DNA from: Elsinoe ampelina
Taxonomy: Eukaryota
NCBI GenBank assembly: GCA_010093995.1
Contig: ML992502.1
Span: 2,302,728-2,366,727, forward strand
Length of the DNA stretch: 64,000 nucleotides
Direction: 5' to 3'
Shown: positions 3,511 through 64,000 of the stretch, piece by piece
How the letters are laid out: each line of letters opens with the position of its first letter
Numbering within the stretch: the first letter of the stretch is position 1
Made by a program: the position numbers and the translations under genes
Notes under the pieces: generated by a model
The model's database searches: none
What the model saw: the letters and a program-made list of their open reading frames with translations, nothing else
Told to the model about the DNA's origin: nothing

Positions 3511-5098
3511 TCAGATGGCGCCGAAGAAAGTGCTGACCGCCCACGGCACAAGTGCGCTGTTAATGTTAGCCAAGTCAATGCATCGTGTGCGACGAAAGCT
3601 TACCCGACAGCCAAGCCAACTCCTATGCCGACTGTTGCCCGCTTCTTGATCCTTTCCCTTCTCACCTCCACCGGTGTGATCTTGATCTTCTTGGTGGCTC
3701 GTCCGCCATCCTCTTCGGCGCCGGCTTTGGTATCGATAACGTCTCTGTGGCCGATATCGAGGATCTCTCCCTCCTCATCACGGGTGATGTCCACAGCCTT
3801 CCGCTTTCTTCCTCTGACCGTCTCCTTCCTCGTCTCAGTCAACTTGTTCGCCTCGTCAATCGCCTTGCGCGCGGAGTCTAGGTATGCCTGTGCATCGCCG
3901 GGCATCTTCACGCTGGCTCGCTTGGCGGGCGTCTCGACCTTGACATCCGTGCTTGTCTCCTCGTCGCCATTTGCAAGAACTTCGGTTTGACTGACGACAT
4001 CGACCTTGACCGTCTCCTCTTCCTCCTCCGCAAGCTCGCCCTTGAGCGCCTTTTGACGACCGCTGGTCTTTCGCGTCGACTTTGCGGTGGTCGCCGTAGA
4101 CTCTTCGGGCTCGACGCTGGCGCTGCCCGCAGCCGGGCGGCCTCTCTTGGTACGCTTGGGCGTGGCAATCTTGCGTGGTGTCTTCATGTCGCGATCTGGT
4201 GCAGGAATCTTGGTCGGGCTCGCGGAACGAAGCGCTCGCTTGCGCGGTGACTTTGTCTTTGGTGACTCTTCAGGCGGAGGTAGGATGGCGCCGTTCAGCG
4301 TGGGTGTCTTTGCGCGGGTAGTGCGCGGTGGGGATTGAGGAGCAGGCGACTTGGACTTGGCTGACGGGGCGTGGAAGGCTGGCGGAGCTTTGATCTCGCG
4401 CTTCGTCGCTGTCGTGCTAGGTGGCATCGGAGCGGGATCAAGCAGGACGAGGAGCCAATCGCGGATCTGATATTCGTCGGCGAGATCGAGAGCTGTGAAA
4501 AAGTCAGATGTGAAAAGGGAAGGTGAAGCGGGGTCCTGCAGGAAGGTGCATACCTATTTGCGGAGGGACCCAGATGTTGCCGGCAATTTCTTCTTTGTCG
4601 GCTTGTGGCAGATTCTTGAGGTATGCTTTCTCGGCGGCCTCTTCTTCTTCCGATGCCCAGGGGTAAGTGACCTTGAATAGTCCGCTGGCGCTTACGAAAC
4701 CGTCGCTCGACCGTCTCTACATTACTCGTCAGTTGTGCAATCTTGTGATACTCTTTTACGATCGGACTGACCATCAAAAAGTAAGCTTCTGGGGTCGAAT
4801 GTCCCCGGGCTGCGTGAAAGATACCAGATCCTTTCAAATCCTTGGGAAGAGGTACACGGATGTGGGCGTAGTCAAAGGGACCGAGATTCTTAGGCTTGGT
4901 CGCGTTCGATGTGCCTACTTGTCCAGCATCGACTGCGAGTTCTGTCTGTCCTAGTCGTCTCTTTGACAATAGCTCTTGACCTGTATCTCCGTCAGCCACG
5001 TCTTCTATTTCGCATCAGATAGATTCCATACGAAGCTCTTCGTCATCCAGTGGCTCGAGTAGAGGATTTCGTCGCGTTGGTAATGAGCGCTCTGTCAT
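3511..5098 (-). CDS. APSES/KilA-N domain, tail-anchored nuclear-envelope protein (Bqt4-like)
   Basis: Five exons assembled by hand: MTERSLPTRRNPLL / KRRLGQTEL...FDYAHIRVPLPKDL...YFLM / RRSSDGFVSASGLFKVTYPWASEEEE...AGNIWVPP / ALDLADEYQI, a basic disordered region, then a C-terminal hydrophobic tail IGVGLAVGALVPWAVSTFFGAI*. Confidence 0.8.
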
Positions 5099-5957
5099 GT
5101 TGGCACGAACCGAAGGAGGAAGAGGTCGATGCGACAAGGAAGGGTGAATTGGAGGTTGACGCGATGCGCTTTCGATAATGATGACGCGCGCAAAGCCGTT
5201 TAGACTTGGGATGCGAATTTCCAAGACCCAATCGCGATCGGATGAAACGTGGATGAAGACGACGAATGCGACCACGGACAACACAAGAACAGCTGTAAAG
5301 ATGACAATGACCAGCGCTGCAAAGAAGTGAAAAGAAGTCAAGCTGTCTAAAGGCATGGCCGAAAGCTTTGACCTTCGCGCCCTCGGAGGCTCAAGCCTCA
5401 CTAGCTAGTGCGGAGATGGCTGGGATCAAAAGAGCCGCATCAATGACCCCGGGTCGACGGCAATGCTCGGGAACAGGTCTTTAGACGATGATAGACGATG
5501 GTAGACAAATCCGTGAAGAGCATGCTAGCAGATTGCATCCAGCTGTATCAAAAGCCACACGTTCCTGAGTCAAAATCTCATGTCCCATGTCCATCGGGCA
5601 GCTACGACCGCCGACGTGGAATCTTACCTCGCAATAAAGATAGGCATGCAACATTGCATATTTGCATACACTAGGTAGCCGGCCCACCAATTTCTATAGC
5701 TCAATCACAATTGTAGACGTGGCAATGGCACATGAATTGGATTGTCCCTGAGCGGTGAAGGAGGGGCAAATACGGACCCCACTTTGACTGTTTGTTCTCG
5801 ACTCGGACCACATCTTGACCTTTGACCTTCTCCCTGCTCACGTTCGCATTCCATCTTGACTCTTGCATCAAAGTAATTGCCATACGAATCGCAGCATCAG
5901 TCCTTGCATTGCCTTTATATCTCGAAACGACAACGATAGGAGAACAACAACAACGAC

Positions 5958-8900
5958 ATGGCTAGCCACGCGGACGATGATCTTGCCGCGGAGCAGACAG
6001 AGGGCTTCAAGGTGGGCGAGAAGAAGACGATTGACGAATATCAAAAGCTCGGTGAGTTGTCCTCCTTGTTCTTACTGCGTTAAAGTCATTCTCTACGACA
6101 AGATGGCTCCTTCCTCTCGTTGAGTTCATCACAATCCCGCCGACTATATGGGACAATCCGTCTTCAATATATGGACACTGGCCACACCAAACATCCTTTA
6201 TCTAGCCTATCGCTATTATTCCTATTGAATATCTCCCATGCGACAACGATTCCGCTCACTCCAATCCATATCAAGATGGACCCCGTCGACCCAGCCCAGG
6301 CAAATATCTCGTACACTGAATTCCGCAACAATCTGCGTATGCGACTTCGCCCCGACGAATCTATCCCCGCACATCTAGGTCTTCCTGTCGAGCTACATCG
6401 AAGGTACTGTCTGCAGTACATCGAAGAGGGTCAAGCAGCTCATGGTGAAGCTGCAAACGAAACGAAGTGGTACCGCGAATAGGGGAACGGCAACCGCCTC
6501 ATAAATCAGCGCCAGCCATGGATCCGAACCGCCAACATGACCAGGCAGCAAGTTTCAGACCGTATATTCGAAGACTGTCTACGACAAGCAAGATGTTCCA
6601 AAGCTAGACGTCTCCTTGAACGGACAGGGTCAATTTTCGATCCGGATAAGCGACACTGCGATGACCCAGACTTGACGAGGTGGGTCCGCGCTCTTCCTTC
6701 GGACTTTCGAGATGCCAATCTACAACTCTCTTCCGACCATCAGCTTAGACCAATAGCCGGCGATCAACGTGGATCGATCTCGGCTGCTCTGAAGTCAGAC
6801 TTTGGCGTCCTTGGATGCGCCTTACGTCGCTCTTCGATTCTGCGCAAGGACAGCGCTATAGATCCTTTTCAATTCCAGAGCCGGGAATTGCCCCCAACTC
6901 AATCTGGTGCTGTGCCTCAATACTTCGCGGATCAGCTGGGCGAACCCCGTTCATCCCCGCCGCGACGATCCCTGTTCCGACCACCATCGCCTTCGACTTC
7001 AATACGCTCTACACAAAGGCCACCGGAGTACCCCGCTCAAAGTGAAGATGTAACGTCGACTGGTCCCAGGAACAGTGAACAACCATTGGTTCTTGACGAA
7101 TAGGATCTCTCAAGGACTTACGCAGCTGGACGTCCCAGAAGAAATTTCATCTTCAGTCGCAGGAGAGCGCCGCAGATAGACCACGCAGACTTGGACAGAG
7201 CTGTGTCAAGGATTGGTGAGCAGCATCGATCCGGTATCGTACATTCAAATGGCGACTACGCCCTTCCGGACGATCGGCGACCGCAGAACATTAATCCCAA
7301 CCAGCGACGCTCTTGGTGGAGACGACGCACACCAGAGGAAAGACAGTTGCGAAGAGCTGCCGCCGATCTTTTTGAGGACGTGCAGAACCGTAGAAGTACT
7401 TTGCGACCTGTTCGTCCCCCAAACCCACCCAACACGAGCTCTCTATTGGAGACAGAGCAGCCCTTGGCCCCACCAAACAGTGAAGATGCGTCTACCACAG
7501 CTACGGCAAATTTCGGGAACCCCGTGAGTGGCAGCGTTTAGTAGCAACAACAACAGGCACATCCTCGTAGTGACTGGTCTCGACCGGGGCCGGATCGTAT
7601 TGTGCAGCTCGCACGTACGATACCATTGCGAGCCATGCCTGCAGAATCAGTCCAATCTACAACTACAGAATCAGACCAAACCACGTCTGCAGGACCAGTA
7701 AATTCTACGCCTGTAGGGCCAGTGCCGCCCACGCCTGCAGCACCAGTACAGCCTGCAGCACCATCGCGGCCTGCTCCCACGGTATCAACGCAATCCTTCC
7801 CTACAGTATCCGCTAATCCAAGCCGCGGACAAAATCAGGACGCTGTTGCAGATCAACGAGACCCAAGCACAGAGTCAGATCATCACGCTACGCAGAATGG
7901 CCGCCCTTCAGGTTCAGAATGGCAAACAGAAACGACGCAAGACCAGACTGAATCGAGTGGTATTCCCAGCAGGCAAACAAGACAAAGTCTCGCAGCGAGA
8001 CTGAACGGTCAGATTCCAATACGATTCTTTGGTCGAGATGGGGGTACCCAGAACCCCTCCAGATACCGCGTCATTGGATATCACAACGTACGTGATAGGT
8101 ATCGTAATGCCTTCGATGATCATTCTTCTTCCCTCGAAGGCCGGACTCGTCGGGTGTCTACTCGCACCGTCCCATTGGCCACGCCCATCGGACCAGAACA
8201 AACTGGTCTACATGTCCACAACTGGGTCGAAGAGAATGACAATCCGGAGTTGGAAGCACAGAGACGTGCAGCTCGTCACTGGTGGATCTCTACTATGTGG
8301 CGTAATACGGTGAACGACTTCGAAGCTGCCTTTCATCGTCTCGGCGGTTACATGCATCGTCATCGTCATACTCATGATGGACCATTTGGAATAGGATACT
8401 GAAAAACTCGGCGCGTTAGATTGACCATTGGACTCGGTAGAAATCATCGTTCTTTACACGACCCGGAATCGGACACCTCTGACTCCGTGCTACTACTCGA
8501 CTTGGACACTCATTTCAGCATCACATTGATTCGGGCCATTATTTGCATTGTACTGATAAGTATCTTTAGACCAAAATGATGAGTCTCTCCGCAAATGGAA
8601 GGAGTCGCTCGGCATCGGTTCAGGTAAAACGATCGGTGACCCATCCGACCCTCGCAAGTGCATCATCCTCTCTCTAGGTCTCGAAGTCGAAGGCCGCCCC
8701 GACATCATCATCGACCTGACCACTCCCGGGGCCCTCGAGAAATTGAAGAAGCAGCCATTCACGATCAAGGAGGGTGCCACCTTTCGCATGAAGGCCAGAT
8801 TCACGGTACAGCACCAGATTCTCAGCGGAATGAAGTACATTCAGGTCGTCAAGCGAGGGCCTCTCACCAACAAGATGCAGGAAATGATTGTGCGTTTCGT

Positions 8901-9118
8901 GTCCAAGAGCGTCCTAGCAGGAAGCTGATCGTTCACAGGGCTCCTACTCCCCAAGCACAACCGACAAGCCAGAGTACGAGAAGAAATTCGAGCCAGAAAC
9001 TGCTCCTTCCGGCATGGTCGGTCGCGGATCGTACAAGGCTGTTTCTCGTTTCGTGGATGATGATCAGCAGGAGCATCTGAAGTTTGAGTGGTCATTCGAA
9101 ATCAAGAAGGACTGGTGA
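5958..9118 (+). CDS. RDI1: Rho GDP-dissociation inhibitor; exons 5958-6051, 8570-8889, 8939-9118
   Basis: MASHADDDLAAEQTEGFKVGEKKTIDEYQKL joins DQNDESLRKWKESLG across a 2518-nt intron (GTGAGT...CTGAT...TAG). It continues FTIKEGA, MQEMI/GSYSP, APSGMVGRGSY, FVDDDQQEHLKFEWSFEIKKDW*. Confidence 0.95.
6276..8402 (+). pseudogene. Nested 709-codon reading frame in RDI1 intron 1 with four in-frame TAG stops (pseudogene, or editing/readthrough-dependent gene); unknown protein
   Basis: Track ORFs 6120-6482, 6537-7103, 7191-7541 and 7602-8402 share one frame. I translated the gaps between them: the only interruptions are TAG at 6480, 7101, 7539 and 7542. There is an ATG at 6276 (AAGATGG context) and a terminal TGA at 8400-8402. 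Confidence 0.75.
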
Positions 9119-9611
9119 GCATGACTTGTCACGTACCGGAACGAGGTAGCGAGGCAGTCATGAAGGTAGCATCCGCCATCCGAGGCACTGACTTGAAGGG
9201 GTGGTGTTCATCATTGCATTATCATGACTCTCTTTATAGATGGCAGGAATGCATACCCTTATACCACGTCTCGTGGCTGTGCTGCTCCATTCTGTGTCGT
9301 CGTGTCCCCTCTGTCCCGCCAGGATGGATTACAGTGATGGTCTTATCATAAAATATATGCAAGAAGAGAAGTTGACTTATACCCTGAGTCCTCCTCCTTC
9401 ACTGCCCTCATTACTTGTCCTACATCCTTCAGCCCAGGACCCCGCCCTCCCCGACAACCCTGCATTCAAGTCTTTCATAGTTCCGTCTCTTCGCAAGCAG
9501 AATGATCTCCCTCCTCTTCTCTCCACCAAGACACCCCCTGCCTCTGACCCCCCCTTCCCTCCTTCCCCCTCCCTCTTCCCATCCTCAACCTCCCACCCAC
9601 CGGCGCATGTC

Positions 9612-10283
9612 TCACACCCACCCTCCCCTCCCCTCCCACGACGACGAACCAGCGTCATAAAGCCGCAGTCTCCCGACCCCTGCACGCCGAGACAGTCCCT
9701 CACACGGAGCGGTGTACGGACCCTCGCTCTCATCCGTCCATCCATCCGCACCGGCCCAGGGCTCCGGTCGAGTGTAATAGTAGGAGATGGCCGACCCAGC
9801 GGAATCGGTCTTGCGGTGGCATTCCCCTGCTCTCCTTGTCGACTGCGACTGCGACTGCCAGCTGGATCCTGCGTCGGACCCGCTCGGCTCTGGAGAGGGC
9901 GGAGAGCTCCCCGTTGACTCGCTCAGTGATGGAGGCGCGGAGGTAGGGGGGGAGGGGTCGTGGCTGGGTCTCGCTTCTTGGTCGATCCGGTCTTGAGAGC
10001 GGGGGGGTGCAGGGGAGATGAGTTGCGGGTGGACGCGGCGGATGGAGATTGTGCGGGCTGTGTGGAGTTCTGTTGTTGTAATGGAGTCGAGGGGGAGGGA
10101 GTCATGGCTTGCGAGTATTGCAAGGTCATGCTTGGCGGAAAGGTGGGTGGGTTGGGGAGGGTGGTGCGGTGGTTGTGGGATTGATGGGAGGGGGGAGGCA
10201 TCGGTCTTCTTGCCTGATGGGCGGTGGCGGGTGGAGGTCGAGTGGATGAGTTTGGTGGAGAGGCGGCGGATGAGGCCTGGCAT
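9612..10283 (-). CDS. Hypothetical low-complexity Ser/Pro-rich protein (223 aa)
   Basis: ATG-initiated ORF MPGLIRRLSTKL... with no recognisable domain. It lies in a compositionally skewed island where ORFs arise easily. Confidence 0.4.
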   Translation of the reverse strand: MPGLIRRLSTKLIHSTSTRHRPSGKKTDASPLPSIPQPPHHPPQPTHLSAKHDLAILASHDSLPLDSITTTELHTARTISIRRVHPQLISPAPPRSQDRIDQEARPSHDPSPPTSAPPSLSESTGSSPPSPEPSGSDAGSSWQSQSQSTRRAGECHRKTDSAGSAISYYYTRPEPWAGADGWTDESEGPYTAPCEGLSRRAGVGRLRLYDAGSSSWEGRGGWV

Positions 10284-54444: not shown

Positions 54445-55394
54445 CTACTTCCTCCTCGTCCCCTGCTCCCTCAACACCTCCGCCCCCGAAGCTTTGCCCT
54501 GCCCCTCCCCTCCCCTCCTCACCTCCCCCTCCCTTCCCCCCTCCTGCACCAACCTCGCCCTCCTCTCCTCATCAAAATACTCCGGATAACTACTCCGATA
54601 CCCCAACCACCACTCCCCGACCCACTTCCCCACCACCACGCCAAACCCCCAACTCAACCACCTGCTCACCACACCCGGGCCCGGGAAAGCAAGACTCGTC
54701 TCCGCATCATGCAACATGAGCGCCAACTGGGGCAGAGACGGACTCACGCCTTGGACGGTACAGTCCTCGAGGTAAGAGTATATGTTGCGGAAAAAGCGCT
54801 CGGAGGCGCCGAGGATGGAGGCGCGGGAGGAGGGGGAGAGGAGGGATTGGTGGGGGGAGAGGAGGGTGGAGATTTCGATGATGCAGGGGACGGGGGAGAG
54901 GGGGTCGGCGCGGAAGGTGTGTCGGGCGCCANNNNNNNNNNNNNNNNNNNNNNNNNNNNNNNNNNNNNNNNNNNNNNNNNNNNNNNNNNNNNNNNNNNNN
55001 NNNNNNNNNNNNNNNNNNNNNNNNNNNNNNNNNNNNNNNNNNNNNNNNNNNNNNNNNNNNNNNNNNNNNNNNNNNNNNNNNNNNNNNNNNNNNNNNNNNN
55101 NAGACTTACCCTTGACGGATGAAGAATTGCTCTTCTTGGTACCTGGGCTGGTTAGAAGGAGGACGGGGAGGAGAGGTGGGGTTTTTCATACCAATGCCAG
55201 TGGAAGGGAGGGATCAAGACGTTCTTGTCATCCGGCACGTCCTTGAAGTCTTGTGGTCGATGGGTGGTCTGGATTTCAAGCACTGATTTGCCATCTGGTG
55301 GTGTGACCCATTTGGTTGAGCGGGCTCCGTTCCATTGGGTCAGCTCGTCAATGTGAGCGGATGGAGTGCGTTTGACGTGGAAGTTGGACGACAT
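54445..55394 (-). CDS. Cupin-like (RmlC-fold) protein interrupted by the assembly gap
   Basis: PPFHWHW/YQEEQFFIRQG before the gap; GARHTF...ERFFRNIYSYLEDC...SPSLPQLALML...GYRSSYPEYF after it. Confidence 0.75.
54932..55101. other. Assembly gap (170 N)
   Basis: Run of N in the sequence. Confidence 1.
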
Positions 55395-61808: not shown

Positions 61809-64000
61809 ATGAGGACTCAGCATTCTCTGCTGGCCGCTACGGCGTTCAGTGGAGTCGCCCTCGCCGCACCAGCCAAGCTCGAGAAGAAGGACTTTCTCGG
61901 AGTGGCAAAGACTCTGCTCGGTAACCAGGGTGGCGTGGCTGCGACTGCAGTCTCCAACATCCTTGGAGCTGCTTCCACAGCCGTCAGTCAGCAAGGTGGT
62001 GCTGTTAGCACCGCAGCCAGTCAAGCTCAACAGCCATGGGTCACTCTGTAAGTCATCCCTCACACATCTCGCTATTAAAGTTCCTCAGACTAACGACATT
62101 AGTCCTGGCGGTCTGGGTAACGTGGTCAACACTGTCATTGGCAACGGGGGCTCTGTTCCTTCCGCTGCTCTGCCCTCGACGGGTCTTCCGTCAGTGAGCG
62201 TACCAGCAGTCTCCATTCCCTCCGTCAGTGTCCCGAGCGTCAGCGTGCCCAGCGTCCAGCTCCCTACTGTTTCTCCCCCGAGCATCAGCATCCCGAGCTT
62301 CAGCGTCAGCGCTCCGTCCGTCCAGCTGCCGACCATCTCGCCACCAAGCCTGAGCGTCCCATCGGCCAGCATCCCCCAGATCAGCGTCCCGAGCGTCAGC
62401 GTTCCCTCGGCCAGCGCTCCCGCCGTCAGCGTACCTGTTGTCAGCACTCCATCTGCAGGTGCTCCCCTTCTCGGGCTTCCAGTACTCAGCGTGCCTGCTC
62501 TTTCGCTCCCGACCATCTCGATCAACTTGAACATCCCGAGTCGTGCACCCGAGGTCAGCGTTCCTGTTATCTCGGTTCCCAGCGTTTCGGTTCCCAGCGT
62601 CTCGGTCCCTAGCGTCTCGGCCCCTAGCGTCTCAGTGCCATCGGTCTCTCTGAGTGTTCCAACCGATACCCCGGCGATCAGTCTTCCCACCGTCAGCGCC
62701 CCTTCGGTCACCCTTCCAAGTGCGAGCGTTCCTTCGGTCGCTCTTCCTACCGGTGGCAATGGCGGAAGCACCCCTGGCAACGGCGGCAACGATGGCGGCG
62801 ACAACGGAGGTCTCCTCGGTGGACTCTTGAAGATCCCTTCGCTCATCTCCAGCCTCATCCTGCCCACCTCCTCTCTTGCCGGCAACCTCCCAGCCGCTAC
62901 AGGTCTTAACGGAATCGTCCCAGGCGTGGCCAACGGCGTTTCCTCCGTCCTCGGTGGGCTCACTGGCGCCGATCTGCCTACCGGTGGCGCTCCCTCTGCC
63001 ACTGGCCTCAATGGCGTTCTCCCTGGCGTTGCTAGCGGTGTCTCTTCCATTCTCGGCGGCTTCACCGGTGTCGAGATCCCGACCGGCAGCATTCCTGCCG
63101 CCCCTGGCGTTCCGACAGCAGGTAACCCTGCCGGTGGACTCGGCGGCATTGTCTCTGGCGTGGTGGGTGAGGTTTCTACCATTCTTGATGGTTGGACTGG
63201 CATCGGACTACCAACAGGCGCTGGTCTGCCCAGCCTCAGCCTTCCCACCGCTTCCGGTCTCCCGACCGCTGGTCTGCCCTCTGCTGGCAGCCCTGCTGGC
63301 GGACTCGGTGAGATTGTCAATGGCGTCGGTGGCAAGGTCTCTAGCATCCTAGGTGGCCTGTCTGGCGTCGAGCTGCCTACTGGCGCTGGTCTACCTACTC
63401 TTAGCGTCCCCACCGCTTCCGGTCTTCCCACCGCAGGTCTGCCCTCTGCTGGCAGCCCTCTCGGTGGACTCGGCGGGATCGTCTCTGGCGTTGCCGGCCA
63501 GGTCTCTAGCATCCTTGGTGGCGTGTCTGGAGTCGAGCTTCCCACTGGTGCTGGTCTCCCTACCCTCAGCCTCCCAACCGCTTCCGGTCTCCCCACTGCT
63601 GGTCTCCCCACTGCTGGTCTCCCCACTGCTGGTCTCCCCACTGCTGGTCTCCCCACTGCATCTGTTCCCTCTGCGGGCAACCCACTTGCTGGACTCGGCG
63701 GGATCGTCTCTGGCGTTGCCGGCCAGGTGTCTAGCATTCTTGGTGGCGTGTCTGGAGTCGAACTCCCCACTGGTGCTGGTCTCCCTGCCCTTAGCCTCCC
63801 AACCGCTTCCGGTCTCCCCACTGCTGGTCCCCCCACTGCATCTGTTCCCTCTGCGGGCAATCCACTTGCTGGGCTCGGTGGGATCGTCTCTGGCGTTGCC
63901 GGCCAAGTGTCTAGCATCCTTGGTGGCGTGTCTGGAGTCGAACTTCCCACTGGTGCTGGTCTCCCTACCCTGAGCCTCCCAACCGCTTCCGGTCTCCCCA
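61809..64000 (+). CDS. Secreted, highly repetitive Ser/Pro/Val then Gly/Leu/Pro/Thr-rich protein; intron 62048-62102; runs off the right edge
   Basis: Signal peptide MRTQHSLLAATAFSGVALA, then APAKLEKK. After the intron (GTAAGT...CTAAC...TAG) the frame is open to the window end, with PSVSV pentapeptides and larger repeats. Confidence 0.88.
63121..64000 (+). repeat. Coding tandem repeat with units of 165, 165, 225 and 180 nt and a nested 15-nt GGTCTCCCCACTGCT repeat
   Basis: The GG(A/G)CTCGG(C/T)G anchor occurs at 63136, 63301, 63466, 63691 and 63871. Confidence 0.92.

Follow-up and report, generated by a model that had tools for sequence, protein, structure and literature searches.

The window analysed here is a 64,000-nt stretch of the genome of Elsinoe ampelina, a member of the Dothideomycetes, order Myriangiales (contig ML992502.1, assembly GCA_010093995.1), and all positions below are counted from its first letter. 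It contains RDI1, the gene for a Rho-GDI, and, within the first intron of RDI1, a second reading frame on the same strand that is referred to as the guest. The features of the locus are as follows.

5958..6051, + strand: coding part of exon 1 of RDI1 (Rho-GDI); the transcript reaches back to at least 5837
6052..8569, + strand: intron 1 of RDI1, 2518 nt, phase 1, GTGAGT...TTTAG
6129..6275, + strand: putative 5' leader of the guest transcript, weakly indicated by strandless contigs from two studies, which start at 6129 and 6135
6276..8402, + strand: guest gene, an intronless frame of 708 codons from ATG to TGA, single copy, without a Pfam family
6300..6710, + strand: N-terminal folded domain of the guest, codons about 9-145 (alignments, HMM test, AlphaFold2 of the E. 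australis homologue)
6480..6482, + strand: in-frame TAG at codon 69; the fold prediction puts it in a loop modelled with low confidence; TAG in RNA contigs of two studies
7101..7103, + strand: in-frame TAG at codon 276, predicted to lie in a hairpin loop
7539..7544, + strand: tandem in-frame TAG TAG at codons 422-423, followed by CAA CAA CAA CAG; TAG in contigs of two studies
7639..7758, + strand: degenerate repeat of 24 nt, in frame and present four times, within the Pro/Ser/Thr-rich guest segment (repeat survey)
8570..8889, + strand: exon 2 of RDI1, with a PF02115 match and RNA joints
8890..8938, + strand: intron 2 of RDI1, 49 nt, spliced in three of four runs
8939..9118, + strand: coding part of exon 3 of RDI1, ending with TGA

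Exon 1 of RDI1 ends with AAG CTC G at 6051 and exon 2 begins with AC CAA AAT GAT at 8570, and the spliced frame reads as a clean 197-aa Rho-GDI. The identity of the host is confirmed by the PF02115 match on exon 2 (103 bits), and both of its joints are present in RNA. The site survey located a GTGAGT donor, a CTGAT branch site at 8553-8557 and a TAG acceptor at 8567-8569 in intron 1, where only one other candidate combines a branch site with an AG. Part of the stretch is represented in twelve public runs, none of the RNA-bearing ones being recorded as RNA in the run listing, and the joints were examined in four of them, from four studies. Contigs of all four carry the joint that skips the 2518 nt (contig depths of 1789, 22, 56 and 12), as the initial annotation had predicted for a junction between 6051 and 8570. 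In the fourth run, which stems from a relative, intron 2 is skipped at the same place and two letters differ. The 2.5-kb insert is genuine: a misassembly is ruled out by the intron contigs of three runs, which contain the sequence without other letters, and by a homologous insert in E. batatas.

The guest frame fills 84% of intron 1, runs on the same strand as the host and lies wholly within an intron that is really spliced. It has its own start and its own stop codon, separate from the host frame. Across the intron, its + strand frame contains 6 stops vs 21-34 in the five other frames. The context of the ATG at 6276 is strong (A at -3, G at +4), and the leader contains a uORF of 26 codons (6148-6228) as well as, at 6171, an in-frame ATG that is weak. 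A single match to the guest was found in the genome. The Pfam search of the guest returned no family, the Rfam search of 5800-9300 no match and the repeat search of 5000-10000 no repeats; terminal repeats, a transposase and further copies were looked for as marks of a mobile element and none was found. AlphaFold2 predicts a small helical domain for the E. australis homologue (residues about 10-146, pTM 0.59). The second half of this N-terminal domain (N-x-R-Q-P-W ... V-R-A-L-P-x-D, 6504-6704) is the core that is common with Aureobasidium. Outside the helical domain, the guest has few hydrophobic residues (19%). Atlas searches on the function of the guest gave no usable match, or only leads below 0.9.

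A search of 1.84 billion representatives gave four matches to the guest, namely its own fragment, two unnamed proteins and a protein of E. australis that has 190 aa and is 50% identical. The 120 Rho-GDI proteins listed include ten Aureobasidium models with lengths of 300-644 aa. A profile built from the Elsinoe and unnamed proteins only recognized five of these ten at 25.8-33.3 bits and one at 7.5 bits, the best of 504 shuffled or reversed controls scoring 4.2 bits; the remaining four begin downstream of the core. A profile search for longer guest homologues brought up nothing beyond the known Aureobasidium models. The Aureobasidium ORF, filed in 'E set domain-containing protein' models, occupies the same RDI1 intron on the same strand and with the same spacing, and shares with the Elsinoe guest a homologous core (about 20% identity) with an invariant Q-P-W and V-R-x-x-x-D. 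It is intact, has 426-429 aa and comprises a second, probably globular domain, whereas the Elsinoe guest has a long disordered tail and four stops. AlphaFold2 gave a poor model of the Aureobasidium ORF (pLDDT 45). With the E. australis and Aureobasidium models, Foldseek returned nothing at E ≤ 0.001 and the wide search peaked at Z 4.2, which allows no verdict on fold novelty.

Intron 1 was measurable in 52 of 78 metagenome RDI1 loci; left out were 12 loci without exon 1 on the contig, four intronless ones, nine that were unparsed and one without GT. Its position and phase are identical in all 52, and its length is 52-364 nt in 46 of them; one further intron measures 659 nt, and the last five have 1566-1591 nt. 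In a quick tree, which was used solely for placing loci, the five long-intron loci group with Aureobasidium. Each contains an intact, intronless, same-strand ORF of the 426-429 aa size. In the Aureobasidium type, the ATG lies 199-212 nt past the donor and the stop 87-90 nt ahead of the acceptor, the corresponding distances in Elsinoe being 224 and 167 nt.

The dN/dS of the Aureobasidium-type guest is 0.07-0.12 in nine of the ten pairs formed by the five loci, and the tenth pair has one change. The E. ampelina guest differs from that of E. batatas by 20 changes at third and 7 at second positions (p=0.0096), or 19 and 6 when the junction codon is left aside; these DNA changes are visible because the E. 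batatas model begins off frame. Identity with E. batatas is 202/231 in frame vs 58/83 off frame, and 162/165 for RDI1. All compared E. batatas segments are located downstream of the stops of the guest. Judged from these substitutions, the guest frame was under protein-coding constraint in Elsinoe too. Since its position is shared and its core homologous, the nesting would predate the split between Myriangiales and Dothideales, and we conclude with high confidence that RDI1 intron 1 hosts an independent, fast-evolving, same-strand protein gene older than this split.

Intron 1 seems to host guests in more lineages, because Bogoriella and Trypethelium have intron-1 extensions that differ from the guest and are mutually related (42% over 64 aa), and because three cut-off loci carry long upstream ORFs at RDI1 intron 1. 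The guests of Bogoriella, Trypethelium, Neofusicoccum and of loci L055, L065 and L066 gave no match to the guest profile; the last three loci are truncated short of the expected position of the core. The guest is missing from the introns of many relatives.

As the initial annotation foresaw, automatic annotation has mishandled this locus: NCBI holds a fused model, KAF2227004, without the true exon 1, plus a separate 188-aa fragment, and the models of both Elsinoe species fuse the 3' part of the guest to RDI1 exon 2 and drop the true exon 1. Together with the ten Aureobasidium entries among the 120 listed, such models could be taken to mean that the guest frame is an alternative RDI1 exon encoding a fused protein. 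We consider this extremely improbable. The stop of the guest precedes the acceptor in seven of seven Aureobasidium-type loci, no in-frame acceptor with a branch site is available, and the models disagree in length within one species (430-637 aa). The RNA joints, moreover, are those of introns 1 and 2 only, plus one joint of depth 3 with foreign ends.

RNA of the intron itself occurs in the deepest run as one 2470-nt contig from 6129 to 8598, which joins exon 2 and has no joint to exon 1. Its depth of 18 is about 1% of spliced RDI1, whose contigs in the same run (1585-1789) are about 85-100 times as deep. In a second study, the intronic pieces start at 6135. DNA contamination is unlikely to lie behind the intronic contig, as 6052-6128 is uncovered and both flanks are covered. 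The internal start that had been expected in the 5' part of the intron is weakly suggested near 6130 by the contigs beginning at 6129 and 6135 in two studies, these contigs being strandless and without true starts. Hence, the RNA fits an internal guest start near 6130 with read-through into the 3' half of RDI1; a splicing intermediate or 3' bias could look alike.

The initial annotation had further proposed that the guest competes with host splicing through its processing or polyadenylation and could thereby modulate RDI1. These proposals found no support in the sampled RNA: spliced RDI1 far exceeds the intronic RNA, which runs into exon 2. The intron and its surroundings have seven poly(A)-like hexamers, but the stretch between the guest stop and the acceptor is free of them, and nothing shows that RDI1 changes with guest expression. 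That the guest mainly tunes RDI1, by splicing competition or intronic poly(A) cleavage, is a reading we regard as very unlikely. A same-strand layout long kept in two orders, with the ATG 199-224 nt past the donor and the stop 87-167 nt ahead of the acceptor in both, would suit such a role, as would the long, ORF-bearing intron 1 of other lineages; the depth ratio, the continuation of the contig into exon 2 and the lack of a hexamer argue against it, and the guest protein itself is under selection. Nested genes of animals also show no functional link to their hosts in the sections available of PMC3488318.

The same-strand gene stands, as a 708-codon frame, but it needs one correction: the frame is not open, since four in-frame TAG codons interrupt it. 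The initial annotation makes no mention of these codons, on which it depends whether any protein is produced from the guest. All four interruptions are TAG and no frameshift is present. Because contigs of at least two studies read TAG at all four sites, the stops are real and unedited in the sampled RNA. No edited read was detected at the four sites in the contigs, which drop rare variants, and no run is known to represent sexual tissue. Introns that would skip the TAG codons were sought, and none with consensus sites was found. An organism-wide reassignment of TAG is rejected: TAG ends 59 of 183 long ORFs, and a Prp17-like gene normally ends with TAG.

We tentatively favor, at close to but below an even chance, the reading that a weakly transcribed guest is locked by UAG codons and opened by stage-specific A-to-I editing. 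Fungal A-to-I editing prefers a purine at +3 and hairpin loops, and the edited gene PUK1 has TAGTAG (PMC11156358, sections available). At the guest, a +3 purine follows all four TAG codons vs 50-55% of controls (a post hoc count on few, dependent sites), and 10 of the 12 site-by-window folds place the A of TAG in a hairpin loop, vs 53-123 of 300 controls (18-41%; likewise post hoc, with dependent sites). The editing reading is favored by these two properties, by the all-TAG stops without a frameshift and by an AMA1-like gene with a TAG at a Trp position (see below). The intact state of other meiotic genes and the presence of an OTT_1508 deaminase in the genome also speak for it. It is weakened by the lack of an edited read, by the counterparts of codon 69 (three homologues, of which that of E. 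australis has His and the two others Pro, none having Trp) and by the position of the tandem pair within a Gln run; the latter two make CAG a likelier ancestor than TGG. It is further weakened because the guest has four sites, vs at most two in Fusarium, and because an 864-kb genome sample shows no TAG excess. The restriction of editing-competent Ame1 to Sordariomycetes reported in PMC11087585, the deaminase without a ZAO-like neighbour and the strong RIP of the genome likewise speak against it.

Alternatively, the guest may have died recently in E. ampelina through C-to-T changes (CAG to TAG), perhaps when a short-lived duplication exposed it to a single mild round of RIP, and its intronic RNA would then be residual transcription or unspliced pre-mRNA. 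We take this as a real possibility, at clearly less than an even chance. The stop at codon 69 aligns with residues other than Trp, and the genome has heavy RIP blocks. RIP makes no frameshifts, and four TAG stops have p 0.15 under RIP vs 0.016-0.019 under random point mutation. With a TpA/ApT ratio of 0.62, the guest ranks at the 80th percentile among 137 genes, the RIP blocks reaching about 2. The guest is also often lost, being absent from the introns of many relatives, and neither edited RNA nor a genome-wide TAG excess was seen. Against RIP stand the single copy of the guest and the lack of repeats around it, although a lost duplicate is possible, and the RIP-type polarised changes show no clear asymmetry (5 in E. 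ampelina, 3 in E. batatas). Under plain neutral decay, for its part, stops of mixed type and frameshifts would be expected; about 106 neutral changes go with four random stops, yet the frame is unshifted. A separate stop near codon 190 ends the E. australis homologue in two haplotypes that are 97% alike, which would call for a second recent loss, and the AMA1-like TAG at Trp would become a coincidence.

A third account takes the stops as real ends, with short products (68 aa or, after re-initiation at Met88, 188 aa) or slight readthrough of UAG as Gln. TAG CAA is a leaky stop context. The context of Met88 is good, both E. australis and P0007 retain this residue, and the E. australis protein ends at 190 aa, just past the folded domain. 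Nevertheless, this account is unlikely: the first stop cuts the folded domain, the Met88 product would be without the invariant Q-P-W motif, passing four leaky stops one after the other would yield hardly any full-length protein, and selection goes on downstream of all four stops.

For a view beyond the guest, an AMA1-like gene was picked in advance as a test; AMA1, the known hot spot of stop-codon editing in fungi, was looked for because premature-stop-correction (PSC) stops arose independently six times in its orthologues, often from non-TGG codons, according to the sections available of PMC10776026. The third Cdc20-family gene of the genome, which is probably AMA1-like, contains one in-frame TAG, in V-Y-F-*-S, at 2491-2493 of locus L203 on the minus strand. 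This TAG aligns with a Trp of Slp1 and Cdh1/FZR1, homology is continuous on both sides and no intron is present there; the correspondence of this codon to the Fusarium site is putative. A TAG at Trp makes up 7-15% of the nonsense changes in this frame. The site is without a +3 purine and falls in a hairpin loop in none of three folds. RID, SPO22, SPO11 and the VEFS gene are intact once introns are set aside, as far as the loci reach, so that meiotic genes are not generally decaying; of four single-copy PSC orthologues tested, only one has a TAG. Four fragments of the AMA1-like gene and the guest were looked up exactly, without a match.

An 864-kb genome sample showed no TAG excess, 6 of the candidate runs being of the TAG, 7 of the TAA and 18 of the TGA type, and its best TAG case was an intron. 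Among 126 kinase matches (125 of 193 candidates scored), 22 contained stops; 20 of these were examined and all were intronic by script or by eye, including nine of nine TAG-bearing matches. None of 150 scored WD40 matches had a stop, and AMD1 was not identified among the nine of 324 MFS candidates scored.

Known systems resemble the guest in part. The Fusarium graminearum PSC genes (PUK1, FgAMA1, AMD1, FgRID), as far as described in the available sections of PMC10776026 and PMC11156358, are like the guest in having UAG only, a tandem TAGTAG, a +3 purine and predicted hairpin loops. They are also alike in being unedited in non-sexual RNA and in the orphan-like character of a Pezizomycotina gene, and an AMA1-like TAG is present in the E. 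ampelina genome. In contrast to them, the guest has only putative editing, a Dothideomycete host, a probable CAG ancestry, an intron-nested position and four sites; the Fusarium PSC genes have at most two, with two in 6 of 71 (PMC10776026, sections available). By its anatomy, the guest would work like a PSC gene; its membership stays putative, as the one alignable site corresponds to residues other than Trp. Editing-competent Ame1 is described as a Sordariomycete-specific innovation in the sections available of PMC11087585, and restorative editing in Dothideomycetes is not reported in the consulted parts of PMC10776026, PMC11156358 and PMC11087585. The literature search found no report on RNA editing in Elsinoe. 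UAG correction outside the Ame1 system is known from the OLD-ZAO antiviral module (PMC12754623, sections available). An OTT_1508 (OLD-like) deaminase with H-x-E and C-x-x-C is present in the E. ampelina genome as well, without a ZAO-like neighbour or zinc-finger pattern within 20 kb around it. Unlike the OLD-ZAO target, the guest is not a zinc-finger factor, having no zinc finger, and does not lie beside the deaminase, which is located on a different contig.

Among the nested genes of animals, HA_F-type single-exon guests are one example. Nested genes are known mostly in animals, and the animal type matches the present case in that a whole intronless protein gene lies in a spliced intron of a conserved host (PMC3488318, sections available). 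The guest differs by its compact fungal genome (orthologous introns of 50-360 nt), its same-strand orientation, the 84% fill of the intron, RNA that seems to run into host exon 2, and a position kept across two fungal orders. RhoGDI introns of Tuber are 57-145 nt in the available part of PMC2362126. No description of this fungal nested gene was found in the literature searched, most subscription papers lying outside the search.

In this architecture, host splicing removes the whole guest from nearly all RDI1 mRNA. The guest would be weakly transcribed from a start inside the intron at about 6130, presumably from an internal promoter, and in the sampled material its RNA would read through RDI1 exons 2-3, probably to a 3' end shared with RDI1. 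Under the editing reading, the four UAG codons would keep the guest closed while the mycelium grows, and it may be opened in sexual development by stage-specific A-to-I editing, with UAG read as UGG, as in the PSC genes of Fusarium. As a guess, its product could act in the sexual stage and consist of a single small helical domain followed by a long disordered tail.

The wider proposal is tentative, and we put it at somewhat less than an even chance: Elsinoe would edit UAG to UIG in sexual development, as the first Dothideomycete with restorative A-to-I editing, and the guest would be an ancient four-edit target; splicing and stops together would silence it in hyphae, and RDI1 intron 1 would be a long-lived or reused guest site across Dothideomycetes. 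A same-strand protein gene kept in one intron across two fungal orders is unusual where orthologous introns measure 50-360 nt, and the guest corrupts the public Rho-GDI models of Elsinoe and Aureobasidium. If its UAG codons are not edited, the locus would offer a clean case of an old nested gene lost lineage by lineage. If they are edited, the question which classes beyond Sordariomycetes and Pezizomycetes edit their mRNA (PMC11156358, sections available) would gain five exact positions.

At a single locus of Aureobasidium pullulans, the homologue of the guest (the intronless frame inside intron 1 of the Rho-GDI gene RDI1) is represented by fourteen protein models (P0130-P0143) with lengths from 430 to 637 aa. 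RDI1 exon 2 is fused to the guest in all fourteen, and none of them consists of the guest alone. In Elsinoe australis and a Logan variant (P0006 and P0010), the guest homologue is 190 aa long in two haplotypes that are 97% alike; it ends directly before a motif that other homologues carry on through. The Rho-GDI models of Bogoriella and Trypethelium (P0041, P0098) have long N-terminal extensions that are related to each other and unrelated to the Elsinoe guest. These extensions represent a second guest family. Five metagenome loci add further cases of a long RDI1 intron 1:

L055, 1-786: long RDI1 intron 1
L065, 1-713: long RDI1 intron 1
L066, 1-850: long RDI1 intron 1
L060: RDI1 intron 1 of 659 nt
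L007, 1-483: long RDI1 intron 1

These cases have + strand ORFs of 188-245 codons that stop near the acceptor. In a quick tree, L065 clusters with Neodothiora, and L060 and L007 group loosely with Myriangiales.

Window 9119-9300 and the DNA that follows it lie downstream of the RDI1 coding region; there, the deepest RNA run has an RDI1 contig that reaches 238 nt beyond 9300, heading for a convergent gene on the minus strand and its 3' end; the RDI1 contigs of other runs end at 9253 and 9271. Run X4 additionally yielded one contig of depth 3 over window 5987-6037 and 8746-8777, with foreign ends, which looks like a Rho-GDI mRNA from another fungus in the X4 sample. Elsewhere in the window, an N run (assembly gap) lies within a gene at about 54630-54790, and the terminal part (62600-64000, GC 0.63) contains repetitive frames that are Ser/Leu/Pro-rich or Gly-rich.

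The sampled genome (G000) displays a strong RIP signature (TpA/ApT about 2, GC about 0.3) in AT-rich blocks (L115-L119, L129-L133, L156-L157, L173-L174, L183, L188 and L192-L193). Its one OTT_1508 (OLD-like) deaminase (L080:982-2367, minus strand; G000:C5:1417709-1419094) carries the motifs H-x-E and C-x-x-C, and no zinc-finger neighbour was seen in the 20 kb around it.

Two further genes were considered for in-frame stops:

L169:2348-2395: 48-nt intron of an RRM-like gene with 1560 codons
L203:2491-2493, minus strand (G000:C1, about 2947485): single in-frame TAG of an AMA1-like Cdc20-family gene

The apparent in-frame TAG of the RRM-like gene was rejected as an artefact of the intron, the donor of which begins within that TAG; such donors are a pitfall in premature-stop hunts. 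The TAG of the AMA1-like gene occupies a position where Slp1 and FZR1 share a conserved Trp, and is probably the best single site in the E. ampelina genome for testing the proposed A-to-I editing of UAG.
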